DNA of 32,419 nt from Lentimicrobiaceae bacterium (GTDB taxonomy: Bacteria; Bacteroidota; Bacteroidia; Bacteroidales; SKPS01), in NCBI GenBank assembly GCA_007119395.1, contig SKPS01000153.1, positions 1 through 32,419 of the forward strand. Reading direction: 5' to 3'. A program made the translations under genes and the position numbers. Numbering within the stretch: the first letter of the stretch is position 1; every line of letters starts with the position of its first letter. The notes beneath the pieces were generated by a model. The model was not told the origin of the DNA. It saw only the letters and a list, made by a program, of their open reading frames with translations, and searched no databases. Of the stretch, positions 592-31,405 are shown piece by piece.

Positions 592-1230
592 CTATAAAAA
601 TGAATTGTTGAGCCGCTCGAATCCAATGGTTGACTTTGGGCCATGACCGGGGTAGATCACGTAATCATCATCATATACCAATACCTTCTCCCTCACCGAA
701 CGTAACAATACCTCCAGACTACCGGTTGGCAAATCGGTTCTCCCGATGCTGAGCTGAAAGAGCAGGTCGCCGGTAACAATCCACTTCCCCGCTTCATGCA
801 CCAGACATACGCTGCCGTCGGCATGACCCGGAGTGTAGAGTACCCCTATCTTTTCACCTCCCAACATCAACTCATCTCCATCCTCAATAAACTCCTCAGG
901 GACAACCAGTTCATCGATTTCAAAACCGAACGAAAGGGCATGCGCAGCCATGTGATCGTAGAAAGGAAGCCCTGCCCGATGAATAACAGGCTTGAGTCCA
1001 TACTTACGATACATAAAACCAGTGCCCAGCACATGGTCAACGTGGCTGTGTGTGTTCACAATCCGCTCTACATTCAAACCATTGTCGGCTAAAAAGGCGG
1101 CGAGATGGTTTTGTTCCTGTTGCGAATAACACGCAGGATCCACCACAATACACTTACCCTTATCATCATAAATGACATAGGTGTTTACTTGAAAAGCATT
1201 GTAAACCAATGTTTTAATATTTAACGCCAT
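592..1230 (-). CDS. MBL-fold metallo-hydrolase (glyoxalase II/YcbL-like)
   Basis: Motifs THSHVDH, TPGH, GDLLF...GRTDLP and PGHG; 212 aa. Confidence 0.92.
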   Translation of the reverse strand: MALNIKTLVYNAFQVNTYVIYDDKGKCIVVDPACYSQQEQNHLAAFLADNGLNVERIVNTHSHVDHVLGTGFMYRKYGLKPVIHRAGLPFYDHMAAHALSFGFEIDELVVPEEFIEDGDELMLGGEKIGVLYTPGHADGSVCLVHEAGKWIVTGDLLFQLSIGRTDLPTGSLEVLLRSVREKVLVYDDDYVIYPGHGPKSTIGFERLNNSFL

Positions 1231-1296
1231 AGTGTGTTAGTTTGAGCACAAGGTATAAAAAAAAAGAAAAAGTATGGTTTGCATCAGATAACGGTT

Positions 1297-1304
1297 TACA
1301 TTTG
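1297..1304 (+). promoter_or_regulatory. Bacteroidota housekeeping sigma -7 box (TACATTTG) upstream of the flavin reductase-rubredoxin gene
   Basis: Matches TAnnTTTG and ends 27 nt before the ATG at 1332. Confidence 0.6.
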
Positions 1305-1331
1305 TAGGAAAGAAATAAACAAAACACGGTT

Positions 1332-2045
1332 ATGTCGAAGAGGGATGCATTTTTTAAGATGACGTATGGCTTGTACCTGATCAGTTGTACTGATGGTGAG
1401 GAGCACAATGCCTACATTGCAAACACGGCGTTTCAGGTTTCCAGCCAACCACCCCGATTTGCGATCAGTTGTCACAAAGAGAACTACTCATCACCTATGA
1501 TTGAGCGGGGCAAGGCGTTTGGTATATCGGTACTTCAGCAGGATACGCCATTGGAGTTTATCCAGCGTTATGGTTATCAGAGTGCCCACAAAGAGAAGAA
1601 GTTCGGTAGGTTGAATTACAAGCGTGGCAAAACGGGTGTGCCGGTGGTATACGATTATTCAGTGGCCTATTTCGAGTGTCGTTTGGTTGAGCAGGTTGAC
1701 GTTGGCACCCACTGGTTATTCATTGGGGAGTTGGTTGATTATGGTATGTTGAGCCGACTGGATGAGCCGTTGGATTACGCTTGGTACCGCAGGGAGCACA
1801 AAGCAGCCTCACCTTCGAAGGCGCCCACCTATGTGCCTGAAGAGGGGGAGGCGATGCCAGGTTCTGAGGTTCTGCAAGGTGCACCTTACGCTTGTGGGGT
1901 ATGTGAATATGTGTACAACCCGGCACGTGGTGATGTGGCGGCCGGTGTGTCTCCGGGTACTCCCTTTGAAGACCTTCCCCACGACTGGGTATGCCCCGTT
2001 TGCGGCGCAGGGAAGATGGTCTTCACAGAGACGGCTGTAGGTTAG
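1332..2045 (+). CDS. Flavin reductase-rubredoxin fusion (high-molecular-weight rubredoxin, Hrb-like)
   Basis: N-terminal flavin reductase-like domain (YGLYLIS...[12 protein letters not shown]...GTHWLFIGE). C-terminal rubredoxin with CGVC...YVY...[17 protein letters not shown]. Confidence 0.9.
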
Positions 2046-3306: not shown

Positions 3307-4311
3307 TTATTTTCCGGCGGCTTGGTTTGCCGTGATGGCAACTAAGTTTACGATATCGTCAACGGAACACCCTCTGGAGAGGTCGTTGATGGGTGCTGCC
3401 ATCCCTTGCAGTACGGGGCCTACAGCCTCTGCACCTGCAAGGCGTTGCACCAGTTTATAGGCGATATTTCCCACTTCCAGGGTGGGGAATACCAGCACAT
3501 TGGCTTTTCCGGCAATCTGGCTCTCGGGGGCTTTGCTTTTTCCAATTTTTTCCACGATCGCTGCATCAGCTTGCATCTCGCCATCAATCAGCAGATCGGG
3601 CGCCATTTCGCGTGCTATTTTTGTTGCTTCCACCACTTTGTCAACCATGGGATGGGAAGCGCTGCCCTTGGTGCTGAAACTCAGCATGGCAACCCTGGGC
3701 TCAATACCTGCAATGGCCTGTGCTGTACGTGCTGTGCTTACAGCAATCTGCGCCAGCTCGTCAGCCGTAGGATCAGGATGAACAGCACAGTCGGCAAAAA
3801 CCAGGATGCCCTGCTCACCCCATTGGGCATCGGGAAGTATCATGATAAACGCCCCTGATACCACACTGATGCCGGGGAGTGTTTTTACAATTTGAAATGC
3901 CGGCCTTAAAACATTGCCTGTGGCATTGGCAGCACCTGCTACTTCACCATCAGCATCACCGTTCTTGATCAACAGGGTGGCCAGATACAAAGGATCCTCC
4001 ACCTGCTGCAAGGCAACCTCACGTGTCATCCCCTTCTCCTTGCGTATGCCGTACAGCATGTCAGCATAAAACTCCTTCTTCGGATGATCTGCAGGGTCAA
4101 TGATCTCTGCAAGATGGATATGTGCCAAACCATGTGCCGCTGCCAAACCGTGAATCTCATCACGGTTACCCAGCAAAATAATCCGGGCAATCCCCTCGCC
4201 CAAGATAATATCAGCCGCTTTTAAGGTGCGTTCTTCTGTGCCTTCGGGTAATACAATACGTTTGTTTTGTGATGTTGCCCGCTCTCTGATGTCTTTTAAT
4301 AATTTGATCAT
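3307..4311 (-). CDS. pta: Phosphate acetyltransferase (short form)
   Basis: Motifs [39 protein letters not shown] and NDLSRGCS; directly upstream of ackA. Confidence 0.97.
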
Positions 4312-4437
4312 ATCTCTTGTGTTTTATCAACCGACTGTCGGCTGCACACAAGAAGAGGTTCAGCGCGATGGCCGGGGGTGAAAAGAATCAATCTTTCAAT
4401 AAGTTGCGACATGCTGCCACAACACTCAATCGCACGG

Positions 4438-4445
4438 CAAAAATA
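4438..4445 (-). promoter_or_regulatory. -7 promoter box (TATTTTTG) for pta-ackA
   Basis: The + strand CAAAAATA reads TAnnTTTG on the minus strand. It lies just downstream of the terminator at 4490-4553 and gives a leader of about 120 nt. Confidence 0.6.
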
Positions 4446-4489
4446 GGCTGATTCTATGAATGTTCCTAATGAATTGAGGGATAAATTTC

Positions 4490-4553
4490 AAAAAAAAACA
4501 CCGGACACCGGCTGCACCCATTGAAAGGGGTGGCTTGAAGCCGGTGTCCGGTG
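4490..4553 (-). terminator. Intrinsic terminator of the GIN/beta-barrel gene
   Basis: Perfect 15-bp inverted repeat CACCGGACACCGGCT (4499-4513) / AGCCGGTGTCCGGTG (4539-4553). The adjacent A-run at 4490-4498 is a U-tract on the minus strand. Confidence 0.85.
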
Positions 4554-4589
4554 GCAATCACTGTGGTTTTGCCACTTATGATGTGTTGA

Positions 4590-6014
4590 TTAATTGAACC
4601 CGGTGAGCACAATGCCGAACGATGCAGCATAGACCTCCGGTCCTTTGTCTTTCTCGAAGAAGGGTAGCAGATTGTATTCGGCGAAAAAGTTGAGTCTGCC
4701 AAAGCCAATTCTGCCGGCTGCAGCTACACGGTAAGGGTTGAGATTGTACCTGTCTCGGGTCCGCTCACGAATGGTGGCACCGCCATCAGAATACTTCACC
4801 CGGGCAGAAGTACCCAAACGCAGTCCGAGGTTTACACCACCGGCAATATGAAATCGCTGACGGACAGGCCCTTTATTGGTCTGGAACTCCAGCATAAACG
4901 GAACCTTCAGGTAGGTTGCAGTTAGCTTGTTGCGCGATAGTTCAATGTCGTCGGAATGGTGCTGTATTACGGTTTTGCCATCCTTTTTTGCCAACCTGAT
5001 ATTCTCTTCAAAATGGTAGTTGTTGAACTCAAAGCCCATACCTGTAACGATGCCGAACTGCTGACGGATCAAAGGCAGATTGGTTTGAAGCAGGTTTACA
5101 TTCCATACCCGTGATGAAGGGATGTTCAGTGCAAGGGATTTGGCCTCCCCTTCAAGATTGAAACTCCCTTTGGAGGTCATAAACGTATTGATACCCAGTT
5201 CAAAACCCTCAAAATGACCATTAAATTTTCCTCTGCCCGACTCTCTGGTTTTTCTCGCTTCTTTTACCACTTCACGCACTTCCATCTCTTTGGCTTCACC
5301 TTCTATGGTCACGTCAATGGTTTCGTTCAACACCTGACTCAGACCGGAGGCCATGGAGGTTACATTCACTTCGTTGATGACAGGCTCTGAAACAAACACT
5401 ACCGAAGCCATGCCTGATACTCTGCCCTCAACCTTCTCTGTGACATTGAGCCTGCCTAATGTAGCACCTGTAAGTCTGATAGATGCCCGATTGATAACCA
5501 GACTATCGAAACGGGCCTGAGAAGCTCCGCCCAGCTCCAAAGTTAGGATCTCAGCAGTGCCCGATACAGTGGCTGTGGCAGCCCCCGTAAGCTTGGCTGT
5601 AAGGTCGGTGCTAACAATTGACATCGTTACGGTTGCAGCCCCTTTCGACTCTAAATGAAATGTGTCAGCAACAAAAGTGCCGATGCCAAGTGCTGTGGAC
5701 GCATCCTGAACTACAAGATGTTCCAGCGAAGGTGTGGTGATGCGCACCAACGCATCGTTGTCGCCACGCGCCGATAACCTTAACGACCCGTCTTGAACAG
5801 CACCTACCACTACACTTTTGCGGTCAGCCTCAGTCCCTTCCACTTGAAGCAAATATGACGAACCCTGGTGTAGCTCAACATTCAATGTGCCGGCAATGGT
5901 CAAACGACTAAATGGTGATACCTCATGCTCCTGCATATCCACCTGTGCGTAACTGGCAGTACCTATCAGTGTGAATAGCAATGAAACGATTAAAAATCTT
6001 ACTGTTGTTTTCAT
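4590..6014 (-). CDS. Exported protein: DUF2807/GIN (autotransporter-adhesin-head-like) domain fused to an outer-membrane beta-barrel
   Basis: Signal peptide ending ASYA-Q. GIN-like start (FSRLTIAGTLNVELHQG) with repeated xxGAx beta-helix rungs (KGAA, TGAA, GGAS, TGAT, SGMA). C-terminal GHFEGFELG...YLKVPFMLEF...RIGFG...NFFAEY is typical of Bacteroidota OMP barrels. Confidence 0.75.
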   Translation of the reverse strand: MKTTVRFLIVSLLFTLIGTASYAQVDMQEHEVSPFSRLTIAGTLNVELHQGSSYLLQVEGTEADRKSVVVGAVQDGSLRLSARGDNDALVRITTPSLEHLVVQDASTALGIGTFVADTFHLESKGAATVTMSIVSTDLTAKLTGAATATVSGTAEILTLELGGASQARFDSLVINRASIRLTGATLGRLNVTEKVEGRVSGMASVVFVSEPVINEVNVTSMASGLSQVLNETIDVTIEGEAKEMEVREVVKEARKTRESGRGKFNGHFEGFELGINTFMTSKGSFNLEGEAKSLALNIPSSRVWNVNLLQTNLPLIRQQFGIVTGMGFEFNNYHFEENIRLAKKDGKTVIQHHSDDIELSRNKLTATYLKVPFMLEFQTNKGPVRQRFHIAGGVNLGLRLGTSARVKYSDGGATIRERTRDRYNLNPYRVAAAGRIGFGRLNFFAEYNLLPFFEKDKGPEVYAASFGIVLTGFN

Positions 6015-23122: not shown

Positions 23123-24682
23123 TTATAGAGGGATGTTACAATGCTTTCTCGGAGGGTTGGTGTCTTTTTTGGTTGCCAGTGCCTGCAGTGCTCTGATGAC
23201 CCTGAAGCGGGTGTTTCGGGGCTCAATGACATCGTCAATATATCCGAATTTGGCAGCCTCATAAGGGTTGGCAAACTTGTCTTTGTACTCTTGTTCTTTC
23301 TCAGCGATGAATCGTTTTTTCTCCTCTTCATCGGTTATCTCAGCCAACTCTCTACTTCTGAGCACCTCAATGGCACCTTTGGGTCCCATAACTGCAATCT
23401 CAGCAGAAGGCCAAGCATAATTGATGTCACCTCGTAACTGTTTGCTGCTCATTACATCGTGAGCACCACCATATGATTTCCTCAGGGTGATGGTCACCTT
23501 TGGTACCGTTGCCTCACCATAGGCAAACATCAGTTTGGCTCCATGAAGAATGATGCCACCGTACTCCTGTTGGGTGCCGGGAAGGAAACCGGGTACATCT
23601 ACCATCGTGACCAATGGTATATTGAAGGCATCGCAAAATCTTACAAAGCGTGCTGCCTTACGTGATGCATCAATATCTAGCACACCTGCCAGGTAGCTGG
23701 GCTGATTGGCCACAACGCCCACAGGCATTCCATCAAACTTGGCAAAACCAGTTACAATGTTTTTGGCATAATGACGATGCACTTCCAGAAACTCGTTGTC
23801 ATCTACTACAGCGTAGATAATGTCTTTTACGTCGTACGGTTTATTGGGGTCTGAAGGGATAAAATAATTCAGTGAGTCTTCCAGTCTGTCGATGGGGTCG
23901 TTGCACTGTACCATGGGTGGGTCTTCCAGGTTATTGGAAGGCAGGTACGAGAGCAGCTTGCGAATCATCATCAGCCCCTCTTCTTCTGTTTCAGAGATAA
24001 AGTGGCTAACACCTGATTTGGCGGCATGCACATGAGCCCCACCCAGTTCGTCAACCGTAACCACTTCGCCGGTTACTGTTTTCACCACCTTAGGGCCTGT
24101 AACAAACATGTAACTGTTGCGCTCACTCATCAGGATGAAATCAGTAAGGGCAGGTGAGTAAACAGCTCCTCCGGCACATGGGCCGAAGATAGCAGAGATC
24201 TGTGGTATCACACCGGATGCATTGATGTTGCGCTGAAAGATCTCGGCATAACCCGCCAGGCTTTTCACACCTTCCTGGATTCGTGCACCACCACTGTCGT
24301 TCAAACCAATCACCGGAGCACCTACTTTCATGGCCTGGTCCATCACCTTGCAGATCTTTTTGGCATATGCCTCTGACAGGGATCCACCGAAAACAGTGAA
24401 ATCCTGTGAGTAAACATACACAATACGACCATCAATGGTACCATAACCAGTTACTACACCATCAGACAAAATACGTTGCTTTTCCAACCCAAAATCGTGG
24501 GAGGTGTGGGTGACAAACATGTCAAACTCCTCAAAACTTCCTTCGTCTAACAGAATTTCAATACGCTCACGGGCTGTGAGTTTGCCCTTTTTATGCTGTG
24601 ATTCAATTCTGGCTATTCCACCACCGAGCCTCGCTTGCTCGCGCCTCGCCATGAGGTCCTTAATTTTGTCTTCTATCGCCAT
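23123..24682 (-). CDS. mmdA: Methylmalonyl-CoA decarboxylase alpha / acyl-CoA carboxyltransferase subunit
   Basis: Motifs [51 protein letters not shown] and KHCNIPL; lies between the epimerase and the membrane subunits. Confidence 0.9.
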
Positions 24683-24703
24683 TTTGATCAATATCTGTAT
24701 GGG

Positions 24704-25123
24704 TTATTCCTTTACTTTCTTGTCTTCGCAAAACTCAGTCAACACACCAAATGTGCTTTTCGGATGTAAAAAGGCAATATCGAGCCCTTCAGCTCCGCGA
24801 CGGGGCACGGAGTCAATCAGTGAGACCCCATGCTCTTTGGCAGCCTCTAGGCATTGCTCTATCCCTTTCACTGCAAACGCTATATGATGAACTCCCTGGC
24901 CACGCTTCTCGATGAATTTTCCAACCGGACCCTCAGGATCTGTAGACTCAAGCAACTCTATCTTGGTGTCACCCACCTTGAAAAAAGCTGTGCGAACCCG
25001 CTGATCCTTCACCTCTTCAATCGCATAGCAGGTGAGACCCAATACCTTCTCGTAATAGGCTATGGCAGCATCCATGTCCTTTACCGCAATCCCAATGTGT
25101 TCAATGTGCGTTGGCTTCATCAT
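24704..25123 (-). CDS. mce: Methylmalonyl-CoA epimerase
   Basis: VOC-fold motifs HIEHIGIAV, IELLE, GVHHIAF and AFLHPKSTFGVLTE. Confidence 0.95.
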   Translation of the reverse strand: MMKPTHIEHIGIAVKDMDAAIAYYEKVLGLTCYAIEEVKDQRVRTAFFKVGDTKIELLESTDPEGPVGKFIEKRGQGVHHIAFAVKGIEQCLEAAKEHGVSLIDSVPRRGAEGLDIAFLHPKSTFGVLTEFCEDKKVKE

Positions 25124-25354: not shown

Positions 25355-26065
25355 CTATACAATGGTTTTTACCCTGTTTCTCTCCTGAATGTATTGTTCA
25401 TATTTCCCTTCAAAGCGGATTCTCGCAGCCACTACAGTATCAAACTGTTTCAGGCTGGCAATCAGCAATTCACACACCTCCCTCAGCGCCATATTTCCCC
25501 CTGTAGAGCCGGTGATATAATCAGCCAAACGGTGTTCCAATACATATCGTCTGGTAAGGGGAGCTGCCGGCTGGTTAAAAAACAGCCTCAGCCCGCACCG
25601 CTGAGCCAAGGTGAAATCAATGATGTCATCAAAAAAAAATGCTGTCTCTTCCGGTACCACTGCATGGTCACGTGACAGAACAGAAAGCGCTTCATCCTTA
25701 CGCTTCACACCTGTCATTACCATATTAAAGTGCTCACGGGTTGCAAACTGCTTCGCTGTTTTATTGTCAGCACCCGACACGATCGCAGTAATGGGCATCT
25801 CCCCCTTGTTTTGTAGCCAGATGGCAAAACGGAGCATGTTCACCCCCATTGAGTCAGCCTCCGTGAAGCCACTTCCGTCGAGATGGGTCTTATGGCCATT
25901 GTTGAATACACCGTCCCAGTCGAATACCAAAGCCCTGACACGCGCTAAACGCCCGGCAAATGATGCATACCCCTCAGGAAACTCACCCCCCAACTCTTTG
26001 AAAGGGGTGATGAGCGCGCTGTCAAACCCAGGCTGTTGTTGTGGATCGTGATGCATGTTGTTCAC
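25355..26065 (-). CDS. KdsC-like HAD phosphatase (divergent)
   Basis: HAD motif I FDWDGV, motif II IVSG, K/DD motifs (KRK...FDDIID) and GGNMALREVCELL resembling the KdsC GG.GA.RE tail. GTGA overlap with the upstream gene; alternative ATG at 26056. Confidence 0.8.
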   Translation of the reverse strand: MNNMHHDPQQQPGFDSALITPFKELGGEFPEGYASFAGRLARVRALVFDWDGVFNNGHKTHLDGSGFTEADSMGVNMLRFAIWLQNKGEMPITAIVSGADNKTAKQFATREHFNMVMTGVKRKDEALSVLSRDHAVVPEETAFFFDDIIDFTLAQRCGLRLFFNQPAAPLTRRYVLEHRLADYITGSTGGNMALREVCELLIASLKQFDTVVAARIRFEGKYEQYIQERNRVKTIV

Positions 26066-27084
26066 GGCCTGCCGTTTTTAAAGAGATCATGGATGTCCAT
26101 GATGCCGATTGGCTTACCATCTTTGGTAACCACAATGTTATCGATTTTCTTTTTCCTGAACAACAATGAAGCATTGTGCAGTGACTCCTCTGCATCGATG
26201 CAGACAGGTGTTTTCACGGGCATGGTATCGAGCTTTTTACGAAGAATTCCTTCCCCTTGTTGCTCAAGCATTCTACGCAGGTCTCCATCGGTGAAGATTC
26301 CTATCAGTGCTCCGTTGTCGTCTGTGATGCTGACGGCGCCAAACTGTGAAGTGGTCATAATGACCAGTGCATCCAGGATGGTTTTATGATGGCTTATGGT
26401 GGAGGGTGCATCTGAGATCACCTGGTGAACCTTAAGGGTGATGAGTCTGGTGTGCTCAAAGAACTGCTGTGTGCCAATGTCGGTGAAATGGTTTTTGAAC
26501 AATTGCTTCATCACCTTCCAGGGAATGGTACAGGCATGTACGCCAAGGTTCAATGCGTTGCGAACGTGTTCTGAATGCCTGACGGATGAGAACATAATTT
26601 TCGAAGGATATCGGTACCTGTCGGTGATCTCAACACATTGCCTGATGAGCCCCAGTGCGTCGTGCCCTTCGTCCTGCAATCGGCCTACCAATGGGCACAC
26701 ATAGGTGGCCCCTGCCGACAACGCCATATAGGCCTGCTGAATCGTATAGACTAGATGTACGTTCACCATCAGCCCTTGATCAATCAACTGCCTGCACGCC
26801 TTTATGCCGTCGGTGCTGACAGGGATTTTAAAGACTGTTCGTGACGGGTCGAGGCCCAATCCGATCAAACGATGCGCTTCAGAACAGATCTCCTCAGCAT
26901 CTTCTCCCAGTGCTTCCACCTGCAAAACAGGCACCCTGGTGGAGAGCTGAAGAATGGTGCTGTTGATGTCTGTGATACCATCACGGTGCATAAAAGTTGG
27001 TGTGGTGGTAAGCCCCGCAAGGATGCCCAATGACGCGGCCTCTTCAATCTCTTCAATATTGGCTGAATCAAGGTATAATTCCAT
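26062..27084 (-). CDS. Transaldolase/fructose-6-phosphate-aldolase family barrel fused to a C-terminal KdsD/KpsF-type CBS pair
   Basis: Residues 1-212: MELYLDSA, GLTTTPT, VFKIP (Schiff-base Lys86), AGATYVCPLVGRL, SSVR and CTIP. Residues ~214-340: LIGIFTDGDLRR and GIMDIHDL. Start placed at ATG 27084. Confidence 0.88.
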   Translation of the reverse strand: MELYLDSANIEEIEEAASLGILAGLTTTPTFMHRDGITDINSTILQLSTRVPVLQVEALGEDAEEICSEAHRLIGLGLDPSRTVFKIPVSTDGIKACRQLIDQGLMVNVHLVYTIQQAYMALSAGATYVCPLVGRLQDEGHDALGLIRQCVEITDRYRYPSKIMFSSVRHSEHVRNALNLGVHACTIPWKVMKQLFKNHFTDIGTQQFFEHTRLITLKVHQVISDAPSTISHHKTILDALVIMTTSQFGAVSITDDNGALIGIFTDGDLRRMLEQQGEGILRKKLDTMPVKTPVCIDAEESLHNASLLFRKKKIDNIVVTKDGKPIGIMDIHDLFKNGRP

Positions 27085-27964
27085 GTTCGTTTTTGTATTG
27101 GTTGATCGTGTTATGTATCTCAAGCAGTGGTTTTAAAAACATTTCCAAGTGTTGGGTATGCATTTGGCTTGCTGCATCGCACAACGCTTTGTCTGGTGCT
27201 GTGTGGGTTTCAATGAAAAGTCCGTCAATGCCTGCTGCCACGGCACTTCGTGCCAGTACACTCAAATATTCACGGGAACCGCCGGCTGGGTTGGAGCTTG
27301 GAATTCCATATCGTCTTACTGAATGTGTAACATCAAATACCACCGGGCATCCGGTTCGTTGCAGATGGTAAAAGCTCCGTGGATCAACCACCAGGTCGTT
27401 GTAACCAAAAGAGTAACCTCGCTCGGTTACCAGGATATTTCTGTTCCCTGCAGCCTCCACCTTGGCAACAGGCTTCAACATCTGTTCCGGTGCCAGAAAC
27501 TGACCTCGTTTGATGTTGACGACCTTGTTCGTTGAGGCCACCTTTTCCAATAGCTCGGTCTGCATGCATAGGTAGGCTGGTATTTGCAATACATCCAATA
27601 CAGCTGCCGCCTCATCAACGTGTTCGGGATAGTGCACATCCGATAACACAGGGAAGCCAAAATCGCCTCTGATCCGTTCCAGAATCCGCAACCCTTTTTC
27701 AAGCCCGGGGCCACGGTAGTAATTGGCAACACTGCGGTTGTCTTTGAGGAAAGAGGATTTGAAAATCACAGGTATGTTTAATCTGGCTGAAATACCTGCC
27801 AGTTGCTCAGCTACCTGCATCATAAGAGGCTCCTCTTCAATCACACAAGGGCCTGAAATTAAAAAGAGGGGAGGTGCTCCGCATACCAAGTCACCTATCA
27901 CCACCTGATGCTTTGTGCGTGACAGGTGACGATCGATTGGCCTAAGGTTGTTTTTCGTAGTCAT
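27068..27964 (-). CDS. kdsA: 3-deoxy-8-phosphooctulonate (KDO8P) synthase-like, non-canonical motifs
   Basis: Motifs GPCVIE, RGPG, SDVH, QIPA, GQF, ERG.SFGYNDLVVD, FDVTHSV and GLFIETH..P..ALCD. Start placed at ATG 27964. Confidence 0.85.
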   Translation of the reverse strand: MTTKNNLRPIDRHLSRTKHQVVIGDLVCGAPPLFLISGPCVIEEEPLMMQVAEQLAGISARLNIPVIFKSSFLKDNRSVANYYRGPGLEKGLRILERIRGDFGFPVLSDVHYPEHVDEAAAVLDVLQIPAYLCMQTELLEKVASTNKVVNIKRGQFLAPEQMLKPVAKVEAAGNRNILVTERGYSFGYNDLVVDPRSFYHLQRTGCPVVFDVTHSVRRYGIPSSNPAGGSREYLSVLARSAVAAGIDGLFIETHTAPDKALCDAASQMHTQHLEMFLKPLLEIHNTINQYKNEHGIIP

Positions 27965-27978
27965 ATCTGCATTGCTGG

Positions 27979-29787
27979 TTAAAAACTGATTTCCCAAACT
28001 ACCTCTTCCTCCCAGTTGGCTCGCAAAGAGACGGCACTGGGGATCACCTTCACTTTTTCGGGTTGTATTCTTTTCCAATAGTCACCGGTATCCCACCTGC
28101 CATTGCCATTGCTGTCGAGAATCGCTTTCAGGTAGTACTGTCCGGCAGGCAGGTATGGGAAAGTGATGGCCCCATCCTCAGAGAGGTTGCCACGGGTTAT
28201 CTCATTCATTCTTTCATCTGTGAGCAGCACAATCACTGAGGTTGCCTGCTCACCTTCCAATCCTGAAATCAACGTAAGGGTTCCAAAGTCTTCGCTGCGT
28301 GCCGGTGTAAAATGATAGCGGATGGTATCGTTGTTTGTGCCATCCCAGCCTGTAATCATTCCGGCGGGAATCATCAGGGTATACTCTGTGCCCTGTTCCA
28401 GGGTATTGGTAATTGCGAAGCGTATGGGTACCAGGGAGTCGATCACCTGAAGCTGCAGCGGGATAGTGTCTTCAGAAGTGGAGAGTGTGCTGCTGGTCAG
28501 GTCTATATGGCTCAATGGTGACGAGAAGGTAATGATGGGGTCACGTGCTGGCCTCAAAGAGCCACCGCGAGGCACATTCATCGACAGGGTGGTGGTGGGT
28601 TCCCGTAACCTGGTTCGGCCGGTACCGGTGGGCTGCCGAAGAGCAGTCCGCAGCGTGTCTGCGAAATAGGGTGTGTCAACAATAGCAAGCGGCAATGCTT
28701 CAAAGGTGTGTTGCTGTAACCATACCCACAAGGTGTCACGACCGGGCGTTAATTGCCATAGCATGATGGAGTCGAGACCCGGCTCAGGAGAAAAGATGTC
28801 AGGTTGCTGAACCGGATAACGGAATGCTACATACGCTTTGTTCCTGCCGTCTGATCGCGATGTAACCACTCTTTGGACACTGTCCTCTCCAACGAACATA
28901 CGCAATACAAAAGGTTCAGAATGTGTGGTGACTGTGTCTGTTCCATTTTCTGTGAGCGTATCCAATGTTGATTCATCGGTGGTGATAACAGCCGAGAGTG
29001 TATCGGAGAGCCCGGCGTTGCTCAAGGTGTCAGGATCGTCCGGTGGAGGCGACGGCATCCGCCATGGTCTCACAGGCTCGCTGTGAAAGGCCACCCCTTC
29101 GGTGAGGAGGTCGTAACGCATGTTGTTGTTCAGGTCAGCCAAGGCAAACAAATGATACAGCGTGTCAGCAATGTGTTGAAATTCAAAATGGCCGTTTTGG
29201 TCAGGGCGCGTAACATACCGCGGCTTCTCCAGGGCCACGGCTGAATCGCTCATGGGGAGCTTGTAGAGCATCACCAGGATGTTCTCTTCAACCTCCTGAT
29301 CCCACGCATTGAACACCCTCCCTTTAATGGTGTGCTGATCGATCTGCGGACCGGTTGAAAAGTAATAGGTATATGGTGGCAGCGGGTTCCCTTCGGTGAT
29401 GTCTTTGATGGCATCACCAAAGAAAAAGGCATAGGTTGCATTGGAGATTAAAGTGTCATGGAACCTGATGGTAAGATTTCTGCCACGAAGTCTTATCTCT
29501 ACCGGATTAGCAAGAGGTGGTGAAACGAGGAGCTGTTGCTGCAGGTTTCCGGTTTGAATGAACTCACTAAAGCGCAATGTAAAGCTGTTCTCTGTGAAAT
29601 CGACACCACCGGAGGGGGGTGTCTCCAGGATCACTTCCGGCGGAGTGGTATCACGCGGGCCACCCGTGGGAGATACAATGTTAGCACAACCGGCAGTCAA
29701 CAATGCAAGCAGATAGATGATCCCCCTTTTCGGCACGGCCGAAGTGATCTTGTGTCGCAGGTTCTGCATTATACAAAGTTCTTTCAT
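27979..29787 (-). CDS. Lipoprotein with Ig-like (Big_5/SbsA-like) domains
   Basis: Lipobox LTAG-C followed by ANIVSPTGGPRDTTPP and FSEFI; DxNxN-type loops; C-terminal ANWE. Confidence 0.8.
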   Translation of the reverse strand: MKELCIMQNLRHKITSAVPKRGIIYLLALLTAGCANIVSPTGGPRDTTPPEVILETPPSGGVDFTENSFTLRFSEFIQTGNLQQQLLVSPPLANPVEIRLRGRNLTIRFHDTLISNATYAFFFGDAIKDITEGNPLPPYTYYFSTGPQIDQHTIKGRVFNAWDQEVEENILVMLYKLPMSDSAVALEKPRYVTRPDQNGHFEFQHIADTLYHLFALADLNNNMRYDLLTEGVAFHSEPVRPWRMPSPPPDDPDTLSNAGLSDTLSAVITTDESTLDTLTENGTDTVTTHSEPFVLRMFVGEDSVQRVVTSRSDGRNKAYVAFRYPVQQPDIFSPEPGLDSIMLWQLTPGRDTLWVWLQQHTFEALPLAIVDTPYFADTLRTALRQPTGTGRTRLREPTTTLSMNVPRGGSLRPARDPIITFSSPLSHIDLTSSTLSTSEDTIPLQLQVIDSLVPIRFAITNTLEQGTEYTLMIPAGMITGWDGTNNDTIRYHFTPARSEDFGTLTLISGLEGEQATSVIVLLTDERMNEITRGNLSEDGAITFPYLPAGQYYLKAILDSNGNGRWDTGDYWKRIQPEKVKVIPSAVSLRANWEEEVVWEISF

Positions 29788-31010
29788 AGTTTGAATTCTA
29801 CTACATCAGGTGACAACCGTCGTACCGGCAGCCAGGCAGCCAGCAAACCAATGGTCATCACCGAGAAAAATATCAGCACAAAATCAGCCCAATGAATCTT
29901 TACGGGATAAGTATCGAAAACCAGGGTATCCGCTACCCCAATGCCAATGAGACCAAACTGTTGCTGTATCCAGGCCAGCAACCCTCCGATAAAAAGGCCC
30001 GTGACAACACCCACGAAAGAGATCTGTAGCCCCTCGAGTAAAAAGATTCTGCGGATGATGCGGTTGCTGGCTCCCATTGCCTGCAAAATGGCGATGTCTT
30101 TCTTTTTCTCCAGAATCAGCATTGTAAGAGACCCGACAACGTTGAAGATGGCCAGTAACAGAATAAAAGAGAGGATGGCAAAGATCGCCCATTTCTCTGA
30201 TCGTATGATTCTGTATAAAAGCTCCTGTTGCTCAAACCGGTCTTGAATCACATATTTCTCTCCCATCAATTGCTGCAACTGCTCTTTGATTCGACGTGTT
30301 GATGCGTTGGGCTTCAGGCCGAGTTCCAGTGAAGTGATTTCGTTGTCGTATGCCATCAGGTCACGCATAAGGTCTATGGGTACCAAAACATACCGGTTGT
30401 CGATCTCTTGTTGCACGGAAAACACCCCTGATGGCCACATCTCTCTGGTGGTGAAAGCCGAAAGTCTGTCGCCGGGTGAAGCAAACCGGTTGGCCATGTA
30501 CACCTCTACGGGGTGTTCAGCCACATCGATGATGGCACCCAGCCTGAAAGCAACACCCGATCCAAAGACTGCACGCGGCATCCTTCCGGGTGCCACCACA
30601 AAGTTGCCCGCATAGACCATGGTGTCCAACCCTGTCATCTCATCGTAATAACCGCTAACACCTTTTAGTGTTGCCAAATGCTGCTTTTCACGGAAACGCA
30701 ATAAAGCGTTCTCTTCGATCACCTCATGGTAATGAACAATCCCTTCCACACCTCTGATCTCCTGAGCCATATATTCGTCGATCTCAAAGGTCTTCCCTTC
30801 AGCAGCCGTAACCCTGATGTCAGGGTGAAAAGCATTGAACAGAGAAAGCACCACCCCTTCAAATCCATTAAAAACAGACAATACCAAAATAAACGCCATG
30901 CTGCCACCCATCACCCCAATGGCCGAAATCGCAGAAATCAGGTTGATGGCATTGTGCTTCTTTTTTGAAAGGAGGTAACGCCTGGCTATATATAATGGAA
31001 AGAGATTCAT
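29784..31010 (-). CDS. LolC/E-like (FtsX/MacB family) ABC transporter permease
   Basis: Motifs IARRYL, VLSVFNGF, large periplasmic domain, EKKKDIAILQAMGA...IRRIFLLEG and YPV; ATGA overlap with rbfA. Confidence 0.88.
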   Translation of the reverse strand: MNLFPLYIARRYLLSKKKHNAINLISAISAIGVMGGSMAFILVLSVFNGFEGVVLSLFNAFHPDIRVTAAEGKTFEIDEYMAQEIRGVEGIVHYHEVIEENALLRFREKQHLATLKGVSGYYDEMTGLDTMVYAGNFVVAPGRMPRAVFGSGVAFRLGAIIDVAEHPVEVYMANRFASPGDRLSAFTTREMWPSGVFSVQQEIDNRYVLVPIDLMRDLMAYDNEITSLELGLKPNASTRRIKEQLQQLMGEKYVIQDRFEQQELLYRIIRSEKWAIFAILSFILLLAIFNVVGSLTMLILEKKKDIAILQAMGASNRIIRRIFLLEGLQISFVGVVTGLFIGGLLAWIQQQFGLIGIGVADTLVFDTYPVKIHWADFVLIFFSVMTIGLLAAWLPVRRLSPDVVEFKL

Positions 31011-31348
31011 TCCTGCAATAACCGGTCAATGTTGTCGATATAGTCCAATGAATCATCTTCATAAAACTCTAACGCAGGAATCACCCTTAACTGATGTCGC
31101 ATGGCACGCCCCAGTTGAAACCGGATTTCACCCCCCTTTTCACGGATCTTCTCCACCAATAACGATTTGTCAGTTGTGCCAAATATACTCAGGTACACTC
31201 TGGCTATCTGCAAATCTTTCGTAATGCGTACTCCGGTTACCGTAACCAAAGCACCACTCCCCCAGATACCCTGACCCTCGCGCTGAAACAGCTCTCCCAT
31301 CTCCTTCTGTATCTGCTTTGAAACACGTTGTTGTCTGACAGAATCCAT
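31007..31348 (-). CDS. rbfA: Ribosome-binding factor A
   Basis: Motifs RQQRVSKQIQKE, VTVTGVRITKDLQIARVYLS and LRVIPALEFYEDDSL. ATG 31348 chosen because the promoter box lies downstream of ATG 31393. Confidence 0.95.
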   Translation of the reverse strand: MDSVRQQRVSKQIQKEMGELFQREGQGIWGSGALVTVTGVRITKDLQIARVYLSIFGTTDKSLLVEKIREKGGEIRFQLGRAMRHQLRVIPALEFYEDDSLDYIDNIDRLLQE

Positions 31349-31376
31349 CGTTGTGCATTTATCGGTTGTGATGTGG

Positions 31377-31405
31377 CAAAGATAACGTTTCATCCGTTAC
31401 CTTTG
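31377..31405. promoter_or_regulatory. Back-to-back divergent -7 boxes: TATCTTTG (minus, 31377-31384, rbfA operon) and TACCTTTG (plus, 31398-31405)
   Basis: Two perfect TAnnTTTG matches 13 nt apart on opposite strands. Confidence 0.65.

Follow-up and report, generated by a model that had tools for sequence, protein, structure and literature searches.

KDO8P synthase, or KdsA (KDO8P being the 8-phosphate of 3-deoxy-D-manno-octulosonate, or Kdo, a sugar of the outer membrane), is an essential and much-studied drug target, and two short motifs, KANRS and PAFLxR, are treated as hallmarks of its family. In the canonical kdsA-kdsD-kdsC gene set, the synthase is accompanied by a precursor supplier, the SIS-domain isomerase KdsD with its pair of CBS domains, and by a KdsC-family phosphatase. 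The same order of three functions was found on the minus strand of the 32,419-nucleotide (nt) stretch of Lentimicrobiaceae DNA studied here (contig SKPS01000153.1; "the window" refers to this whole stretch). This module departs from the canonical set in that a remodelled transaldolase barrel, fused to a KdsD-type CBS pair (TAL-CBS), replaces the SIS isomerase domain, the phosphatase of the haloacid dehalogenase type (HAD*) falls far under the KdsC cut-off, the synthase (KdsA*) belongs to a variant subfamily, and no KdsD was detected in the variant genomes tested. A first-pass annotation of the window had noticed altered motifs in KdsA*, among them KDNRS and PAYLCM, and had suggested that they may indicate a different aldose co-substrate, matched to the product of the neighbouring aldolase-fold enzyme. 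The present analysis adds that a distinct subfamily of KdsA is strictly paired with TAL-CBS, and it adds the relocation of an arginine. In the reading that we favour, with a probability of about 0.6, KdsA* would still be a KDO8P synthase using arabinose 5-phosphate (A5P), with a relocated phosphate clamp, in an alternative three-gene module for Kdo synthesis.

The closest described enzymes are the metal-dependent KdsA proteins, represented by the solved enzymes of Aquifex aeolicus (1fwn and associated entries), which share fold and family with KdsA* (E 4e-81 to 3e-64). The best match in the Protein Data Bank was 6mdy, a KDO8P synthase carrying KANRS (E 4e-81, 52% identity across the whole core), and no solved structure found in that search falls inside the variant clade. 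KdsA* scored 342.3 bits against NF003543 (cut-off 242) and 329.3 bits against TIGR01362 (cut-off 314), the NCBIfam equivalogs for KDO8P synthase, and it also matched Pfam PF00793. The Cys/His/Glu/Asp metal site, the Lys/Lys/Lys/Arg/His set that binds phosphoenolpyruvate (PEP), the K-x-N-R-S backbone and the length are all those of the metal-dependent enzymes, as is the role of only KdsA beside KdsB; unlike them, KdsA* is paired with TAL-CBS and not with KdsD. The metal-class ligands C40, H214, E252 and D263 are invariant in the variant alignment and line up with those of ordinary enzymes, in agreement with the first-pass statement that the Cys of GPC and the His, Glu and Asp motifs were intact. 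The PEP-binding residues K69, K74, K152, R182 and H214, whose roles were transferred by motif spacing, are invariant as well. In Neisseria meningitidis KdsA, the PEP carboxylate is held by Lys50, Lys55 and His197 and the PEP phosphate by Lys133 and Arg163, while Asn57 and Arg58 are in contact with the A5P part (PMC6650799).

The two literal hallmarks are nevertheless lacking. KdsA* keeps the K, N, R and S of the KANRS/T signature of the A5P site with Asp in place of Ala, and has Met where PAFLxR has Arg. A relationship to DAH7P synthase of type I-beta (DAH7P, the 7-phosphate of 3-deoxy-D-arabino-heptulosonate), which also belongs to PF00793, was considered by comparison with the copy encoded by the window's own genome on another contig (C177). 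The KRG-type motif of KdsA* (NIKRGQF) and the D-A-A-x-Q that follows its metal-ligand Asp resemble the LIKRG and SDAAQQ of that copy. DAH7P synthases read K-P-R-[ST] at the position where KdsA* reads K-D-N-R-S with an additional Asn, the scores of KdsA* on the DAH7P-synthase models lie far under the cut-offs (122.6 vs 335 and 106.4 vs 267.75 bits), and the tree places it with the KDO8P synthases. On the strength of its profile scores, its relatives in fold, its ligands and its role in the genome, KdsA* is classified as a member of the KDO8P-synthase family without the two literal hallmarks, and not as a DAH7P synthase. The DAH7P synthase of contig C177 (genome G000, locus L003, 1480-2475, minus strand) carries KPRTS and an N-terminal regulatory domain, and 3 nt after it lies a canonical KdsC-family phosphatase gene (775-1476, minus strand; TIGR01670, 141.9 bits), an unusual pairing. 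This phosphatase has an extra N-terminal stretch of about 70 residues that looks like a helix-turn-helix.

The codons of KDNRS and PAYLCM were read on the minus strand exactly where the first-pass annotation had placed them, in a reading frame that is open across all 298 codons (Table 1). A column comparison was made between 119 clade members and 104 ordinary KdsA proteins, the latter comprising 80 loci from a genome collection, mostly of Pseudomonadota, and 24 from the window's own order. It yielded 66 positions that are conserved and identical in both sets, among them the Cys/His/Glu/Asp ligands, FKSS, K-x-N-R-S, the first Lys of the KK motif and ERG, and 11 that are conserved but different. 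These 11 fixed differences are, in the clade and in ordinary enzymes respectively, S37/A, D75/A, Y131/F, M134/R, H153/K (Arg in the window), R217/Q, Y219/P, C262/S, A264/G, S266/N and F276/L. The active site is altered on its aldose-phosphate side, with the PEP and metal residues retained, which bears out the first-pass view that motifs of the aldose-phosphate site had changed. NIKRGQF had been listed as one more departure, from the KK motif; the substitution is real and affects the second Lys only. This Lys is found in 104/104 ordinary enzymes and is mostly His in the clade (97%), the Arg of the window being a minority form. The retained first Lys corresponds, by its spacing from the Phe of PAFL, to the PEP-phosphate ligand Lys133 of the N. 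meningitidis enzyme (PMC6650799). Equally fixed are changes that had escaped the first-pass annotation, namely THSxQ to THSxR, the rebuilding of the loop that follows (R-[KR]-Y-G-I-P-S), and SDGPN to CDAASQ. The I-E-T-H motif is present in KdsA* of the window.

Table 1. Coordinates of the genes and motifs of the variant module in the window and of the related genes on phage contigs.
Feature	Position	Strand or contig	Remarks
Variant KDO8P synthase gene kdsA*	27068..27964	minus	298 codons plus stop; start ATG at 27964; 27071-27964 without the stop
TAL-CBS fusion gene	26062..27084	minus	Remodelled short-transaldolase (transaldolase/fructose-6-phosphate aldolase) barrel plus KdsD-like CBS pair
HAD* gene	25355..26065	minus	Divergent KdsC-family HAD phosphatase; weak match to NF007019
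G-P-C codons	27845..27853	minus	Cys of the metal-dependent class; C40, invariant in the alignment
K-D-N-R-S codons (ordinary K-A-N-R-S/T)	27731..27745	minus	Asp in 119/119 of the clade; Ala in 103/104 ordinary
P-A-Y-L-C-M codons (ordinary P-A-F-L-x-R)	27563..27580	minus	Met in 119/119 of the clade vs Arg in 104/104 ordinary; Tyr vs Phe in 103/104
N-I-K-R-G-Q-F codons (ordinary N-I-K-K-G-Q-F)	27497..27517	minus	First Lys retained, second Lys to Arg in the window
T-H-S-V-R-R codons	27311..27328	minus	Metal-ligand His, then Arg for an invariant Gln, opening the rebuilt loop; Arg in 119/119 of the clade vs Gln in 104/104 ordinary
T-H-S codons	27320..27328	minus	Metal-ligand His motif
C-D-A-A-S-Q codons (ordinary S-D-G-P-N-x)	27164..27181	minus	Metal-ligand Asp retained, surroundings altered
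Phage TAL barrel, then KdsA	3483-4139, 4130-4882	L236 and L237	Barrel overlaps the start of a short KdsA
Phage TAL barrel	3492-4139	L235	Without CBS tail

The motif changes define a conserved subfamily and are no peculiarity of a single gene; their recurrence goes far beyond what chance would give. The window protein and five relatives from kindred genomes share FKSSF[LM]KDNRS, QIPAYL[CV]MQT, N[IL]K[RH]xQF, THS[IV]R[KR]YG and ALCDAASQ at the positions where the 104 ordinary enzymes read [FY]xKANR[ST], PAFLxRQT, NIKKGQF, THSxQ and SDG[PA]N, and the variant set occurred in none of those 104. Among the best 120 database homologues (63-100% identity), KDNRS, K[H/R]xQF, TH[S/A]xR and CDA[A/S]SQ were each found in 120/120 and PAYLxMQT in 119/120. 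Cultured Flammeovirga species and Thermonema lapsum are among the carriers with names; carriers known as metagenome-assembled genomes bear the source labels Thermonema sp., Cyclobacteriaceae, Saprospiraceae, Crocinitomicaceae, Flavobacteriales and "Chlorobi". A maximum-likelihood tree of 45 rows, built by a quick method and with a DAH7P-synthase outgroup on a very long branch, placed the 15 variant sequences in one clade (SH-aLRT 99) on a stem of 1.06 changes per column, outside the clades of Pseudomonadota and of ordinary Bacteroidota KdsA. Clade formation by KDNRS/PAYLCM sequences was the test that the first-pass annotation had proposed, and the outcome is in its favour. Among representatives of 50%-identity clusters drawn from about 15 billion proteins, the clade amounted to one full-length representative at 417 bits, and the next match stood at 274 bits. 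The clade was recovered by genome searches and from protein databases; a scan of the genome collection with the window KdsA yielded ordinary relatives only (47-56% identity), because the peptide patterns of that scan missed the clade. A literature search returned no description of this subfamily, of its pairing with TAL-CBS or of a transaldolase-CBS enzyme in Kdo synthesis, with most KDO8P-synthase papers in subscription journals outside its reach, so that one may have been published.

The distribution of KdsA* matched that of TAL-CBS. Among 41 kindred genomes, seven carry the variant KdsA (G000, which is the window's own, G001 in partial form, G003, G004, G005, G032 and G040), and full-length TAL-CBS was found in exactly the same seven, adjacent to kdsA* in six and on another contig in G040; the other genomes of the order mostly carry ordinary KdsA (40-48% identity). 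The phylum was sampled with 401 evenly drawn genomes at thresholds of E 1e-30 for KdsA, 1e-60 for TAL-CBS and 1e-25 for KdsD (TIGR00393). KdsA matches were obtained in 296 of these, of variant grade in six (G000, G409, G165, G349, G305 and G234; 61-100% identity), the best match below that grade being at 50% identity. TAL-CBS was present in the same six genomes, which come from different families. KdsD was present in 288 of the 401 genomes and in none of the six, and the profile search did not find it in G003, G032, G040 or the window's own genome either. There, the top match to TIGR00393 was the CBS part of TAL-CBS itself (53.5 bits vs a cut-off of 203.7), which is no SIS+CBS isomerase. The possibility that KDNRS variants were common in ordinary kdsD-containing genomes is therefore at odds with the data, as the variant occurred in no genome with KdsD. 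Both kinds of module were met within single genera: in g70, G349 has the variant module and G210 ordinary KdsA with KdsD, and in g73, G234 and G305 are variant while G222 and G385 have the ordinary pair, which indicates that the two replace each other among close kin.

A metagenome scan with an alignment of ten TAL-CBS proteins as query, from which 80 loci were kept, extended this linkage. KdsA lay in the flank of 62 loci, with variant motifs in 62/62 and ordinary ones in 0/62, and 60 of these 62 kdsA genes end no more than 200 nt from the TAL-CBS start. All 52 near-full-length copies carry KDNRS, PAYLCM, HxxR and CDA[AS]S, eight of them reading MQS instead of MQT. Of the 18 loci without KdsA, seven extend less than 500 nt upstream; in the other 11 the upstream DNA measures 1.4-3.5 kb, and kdsA is simply not adjacent there. 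The link between the clade and TAL-CBS neighbours, for which the first-pass annotation had proposed a test, thus holds in kindred genomes, in the phylum sample and in metagenomes. Adjacency itself is looser, kdsA* and TAL-CBS being on separate contigs in 2 of 12 variant genomes (G040 and G409). In the window the start of TAL-CBS overlaps the stop of kdsA* by 17 nt (8 nt in G003), and the start of HAD* overlaps the stop of TAL-CBS.

Two arginine sites showed the pattern of a residue that has moved and not of a function that was lost. Co-variation was examined in 137 representatives of 50%-identity clusters with residues at all three sites, a count that is not a statistical test because the rows share ancestry and some of them are pieces of the variant clade. 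The Arg of PAFLxR was kept in 124 of them, none of which has Arg at the last position of THSx- (121 Gln, 2 Lys, 1 Gly). It was absent in 13, and 10 of these 13 have Arg at THSx-; eight of the 10 also carry Asp in KxNRS. Asp in KxNRS together with the ordinary Arg/Gln pair was seen in four representatives. CDAASQ is less telling, because D-A-[AS]-[ST]-Q forms also occur with the ordinary pair.

The variant enzyme was the only KdsA in 12/12 variant genomes, where no ordinary KdsA was found. KdsB exceeded its cut-off in 9/9 variant genomes tested. A search for the Kdo transferase domain of WaaA gave a match in 7 of 8 variant genomes and none in the window's own assembly (86% complete, 372 contigs). 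KdsA* thus stands, across the variant genomes, beside a CMP-Kdo synthetase and a Kdo transferase and with no other KdsA. KdsB identity tracked taxonomy and not the type of module in genera g70 (58-64%) and g1 (58-62%). In G234, kdsB directly follows HAD* in the same gene string.

The TAL-CBS protein reached 171 bits on TIGR00875, the model for fructose-6-phosphate aldolase (FSA) and TalC, under the cut-off of 246, and its C-terminal part best matches the CBS pair of KpsF/KdsD. Compared with solved short transaldolases (3r8r, 1vpx and 1wx0), the barrel has kept the Lys of the Schiff base, the Asp and Glu, the Asn of N-x-T and the Arg/Ser/Arg set that binds phosphate, with four active-site changes: T-T-T-P for T-T-N-P, His for the Thr of N-x-T, and Cys and Leu for the Ser and the Phe of S-P-F. 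All four are invariant in ten orthologues. FSA-type enzymes make A5P from glycolaldehyde and glyceraldehyde 3-phosphate (PMC9947464 and PMC13550131), and by analogy this is one possible chemistry for TAL-CBS. More speculative ideas are an isomerase-like action of its His/Cys/Glu set on ribulose 5-phosphate, or the release of A5P from an octulose 8-phosphate. Three phage contigs (L235, L236 and L237) encode the same remodelled barrel without CBS tail, at 60-62% identity and with all four changes. The KdsA encoded on two of them reads DKANRT, PAFLCK, IKKGQW and GHSTQ and scores 233 bits on NF003543, just below the cut-off of 242. The phage pairing offers the best hint that the product of the barrel would suit an ordinary A5P site. 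Barrel and KANRT-type KdsA together look like a two-gene Kdo-precursor set in phages.

HAD* is a weak KdsC relative (53 bits on NF007019, where the cut-off is 208). Its gene comes after TAL-CBS in 7 of the 9 loci examined in other genomes; of the remaining two, one ends at a contig edge and one has the gene elsewhere. The same order was seen in 65 of the 80 metagenome loci. A canonical KdsC-family phosphatase was not found in G234 and G165, and that of G003 scored 103.9, just below the cut-off of 106.95.

A second KdsA-like gene was found within the window's genus, in the window's own genome (G000 contig C329, L002 1486-2235, minus strand), in G006 (L151 7615-8451) and on contig C26 of G005. 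It reads GPS and LSNT, with the metal Cys and His lost, KRVNST, PAYLFRDT and NIRKGMT, has a long branch in the tree that falls among the ordinary KdsA of Bacteroidota, and adjoins genes for large secreted proteins; the G006 copy scored 211 bits against the cut-off of 242. It may be a decayed or re-purposed remnant of an ordinary kdsA. The idea that the C329 copy was the genuine KdsA of the host was rejected, given the missing Cys and His, a score of 199.7 vs 314 bits and its place among secreted-protein genes. G002 and G006, which belong to the window's genus and are 97% and 94% complete, have KdsB above cut-off and WaaA, and G417 (100% complete) has KdsB, WaaA not having been searched there; at the thresholds used, none of the three gave ordinary KdsA, variant KdsA, TAL-CBS or KdsD. 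Three genomes of family f44 in the phylum sample (G119, G190 and G321) have ordinary KdsA, but neither TAL-CBS nor a match to KdsD at E 1e-25 was obtained in them, and they may use a third way of A5P supply or possess a single-domain isomerase missed by the model.

Taken together, these data are best accommodated if KdsA* is a working metal-dependent enzyme that condenses PEP with A5P and would alone supply its host with Kdo 8-phosphate. Its sites for PEP and for the metal are unchanged, and so are the K, N, R and S residues, predicted to hold the sugar by its near end and its phosphate. The second arginine of the phosphate clamp, presumably contributed by the neighbouring subunit, is Met in KdsA*, and the new Arg217, directly after the metal-ligand His on the rebuilt loop of the same subunit, would take over, with Asp75 of KDNRS as its probable partner. 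The clamp would in this way have been rebuilt inside one subunit. KdsA*, TAL-CBS and HAD* are inherited as one unit, in which TAL-CBS, a transaldolase fold with the CBS tail of KdsD, would supply the sugar phosphate in place of the isomerase and the divergent KdsC-like phosphatase is the third member. Several points weigh against this reading. The Arg of PAFLxR (R120 in Escherichia coli, R106 in A. aeolicus) is presumed to be an inter-subunit ligand of the A5P phosphate, and the role given to the Gln of THSxQ is presumed in the same way. The fixed differences concentrate in the aldose pocket, at the far end that takes the phosphate, and in the closing loop. The barrel has lost four residues present in normal transaldolases (Asn, Thr, Ser and Phe), and A5P is its putative product. 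Neither a CBS-tailed TAL beside an ordinary KdsA nor a variant KdsA in a KdsD genome was seen in the 401 genomes and 80 loci; such strict coupling of three jointly divergent enzymes is also expected from a changed intermediate, although co-inheritance as a single operon accounts for it as well. Variant and ordinary genomes of genus g73 have dissimilar KdsB proteins (34-38% identity), and kdsB stands in the swapped operon, so that the downstream enzyme was exchanged there too. Lastly, a canonical KdsC-family phosphatase accompanies HAD* in 5 of 8 variant genomes (G349, G040, G032, G409 and G000, the latter being the C177 copy at 141.9 bits). HAD* may therefore serve another task, with a substrate different from KDO8P, a hint of one more phosphorylated intermediate.

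Several of these points feed the explanation closest to the first-pass proposal, in which KdsA* would condense PEP with another aldose phosphate, differing in chain length, stereochemistry or phosphate position and delivered by the TAL barrel, while HAD* would handle a different phosphorylated acid or extra intermediate, the end product being Kdo reached by another route or a Kdo-like sugar. It gains from the strict co-occurrence of three divergent enzymes, from 11 fixed differences that fall within the aldose-phosphate pocket and closing loop, from the rebuilt active site of TAL-CBS, from the retention of HAD* even alongside canonical KdsC and from the sharp drop in score (417 to 274 bits) between the clade and all other KdsA. 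We nonetheless consider it unlikely, given that KdsA* is the sole KdsA of its hosts with KdsB and WaaA kept, that KdsB does not co-vary with the type of module in two genera, that the enzyme retains the metal-ligand Asp along with the K, N, R and S of the KxNRS motif, that the lost Arg was replaced and not dropped, that the phage barrel is paired with an ordinary-type KANRT KdsA, and that the CBS tail is KdsD-like. Of the original suggestion, the clade and its linkage to TAL-CBS stand; the change of substrate is unproven and has become less likely, weakened, though not refuted, by a context that includes ordinary KdsB and WaaA. The broader form, with KdsA* declining free A5P and tuned to another aldose phosphate or to a handed-over open-chain intermediate from the remodelled barrel, and HAD* removing a phosphate foreign to the classical pathway, is equally doubtful. 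If true, it would make the three genes a previously unknown route by which many Bacteroidota, and their phages, arrive at Kdo or at an acid resembling it.

Somewhat less plausible still is an ordinary reaction in which the changes fit an altered oligomer, or a complex with TAL-CBS that hands over open-chain A5P, so that the Arg from the neighbouring KdsA subunit would be unavailable and would have been rebuilt within the subunit. The gene overlaps in the window and in G003, which fit co-translation in fixed amounts, the strict pairing, and the replacement in the same chain of a residue presumed to be an inter-subunit ligand would all suit such a complex. It sits poorly with the two genomes that keep the genes on separate contigs, with the 11 metagenome loci where at least 1.4 kb of DNA upstream of TAL-CBS holds no kdsA, and with the phage TAL, which has no CBS tail and pairs with the other type of KdsA. 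That KdsA* is a decayed or non-catalytic paralogue, Kdo being made by something else, appears highly improbable. It does depart from motifs that are invariant in ordinary enzymes, and the presence of KdsB and WaaA without recognisable KdsA in G002 and G006 of the same genus suggests that another route may exist in the lineage. Decay is hard to reconcile with new residues that are invariant across 119-120 homologues from many families, with the retention of all metal and PEP ligands, with scores above curated cut-offs, and with the lack of any other KdsA candidate in the 12 variant genomes, the C329 copy, the one further KdsA-like gene of the window's genome, being without Cys and His. The A5P-using synthase with a relocated clamp is therefore the reading that we retain.

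The surroundings of the module in the window look ordinary, and the same flanks are retained in G003 and G004. Genes were named from their translations: the downstream side (23123-25123, minus strand) holds genes for a propionyl-CoA carboxylase beta-like protein and for a small protein of glyoxalase fold, possibly a methylmalonyl-CoA epimerase, and the upstream side (27979-31393, minus strand) genes for a 602-residue putative lipoprotein, a LolE-like permease and an RbfA-like protein. In G234 (L144 9058-11374) and G305 (L145 2575-3678) a gene for an iron-type alcohol dehydrogenase lies just upstream of kdsA*. G234 also has a DegT-type aminotransferase gene there, with a small VapBC-like pair between the dehydrogenase and aminotransferase genes and kdsA*. 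A relative of the dehydrogenase was present in G349 and G032 and was not found in G000, G003 and G165; a link to Kdo8N, considered as an account of the motif changes, was rejected as not general on account of these three absences.

A large natural subfamily without the hallmark Arg, and with Asp in KANRS, appears to be the sole Kdo synthase of its hosts. The motif rules used to separate KDO8P synthases from DAH7P synthases are, in that respect, incomplete, and KdsA* would represent a natural experiment in rebuilding a sugar-phosphate clamp. Culturable carriers exist.

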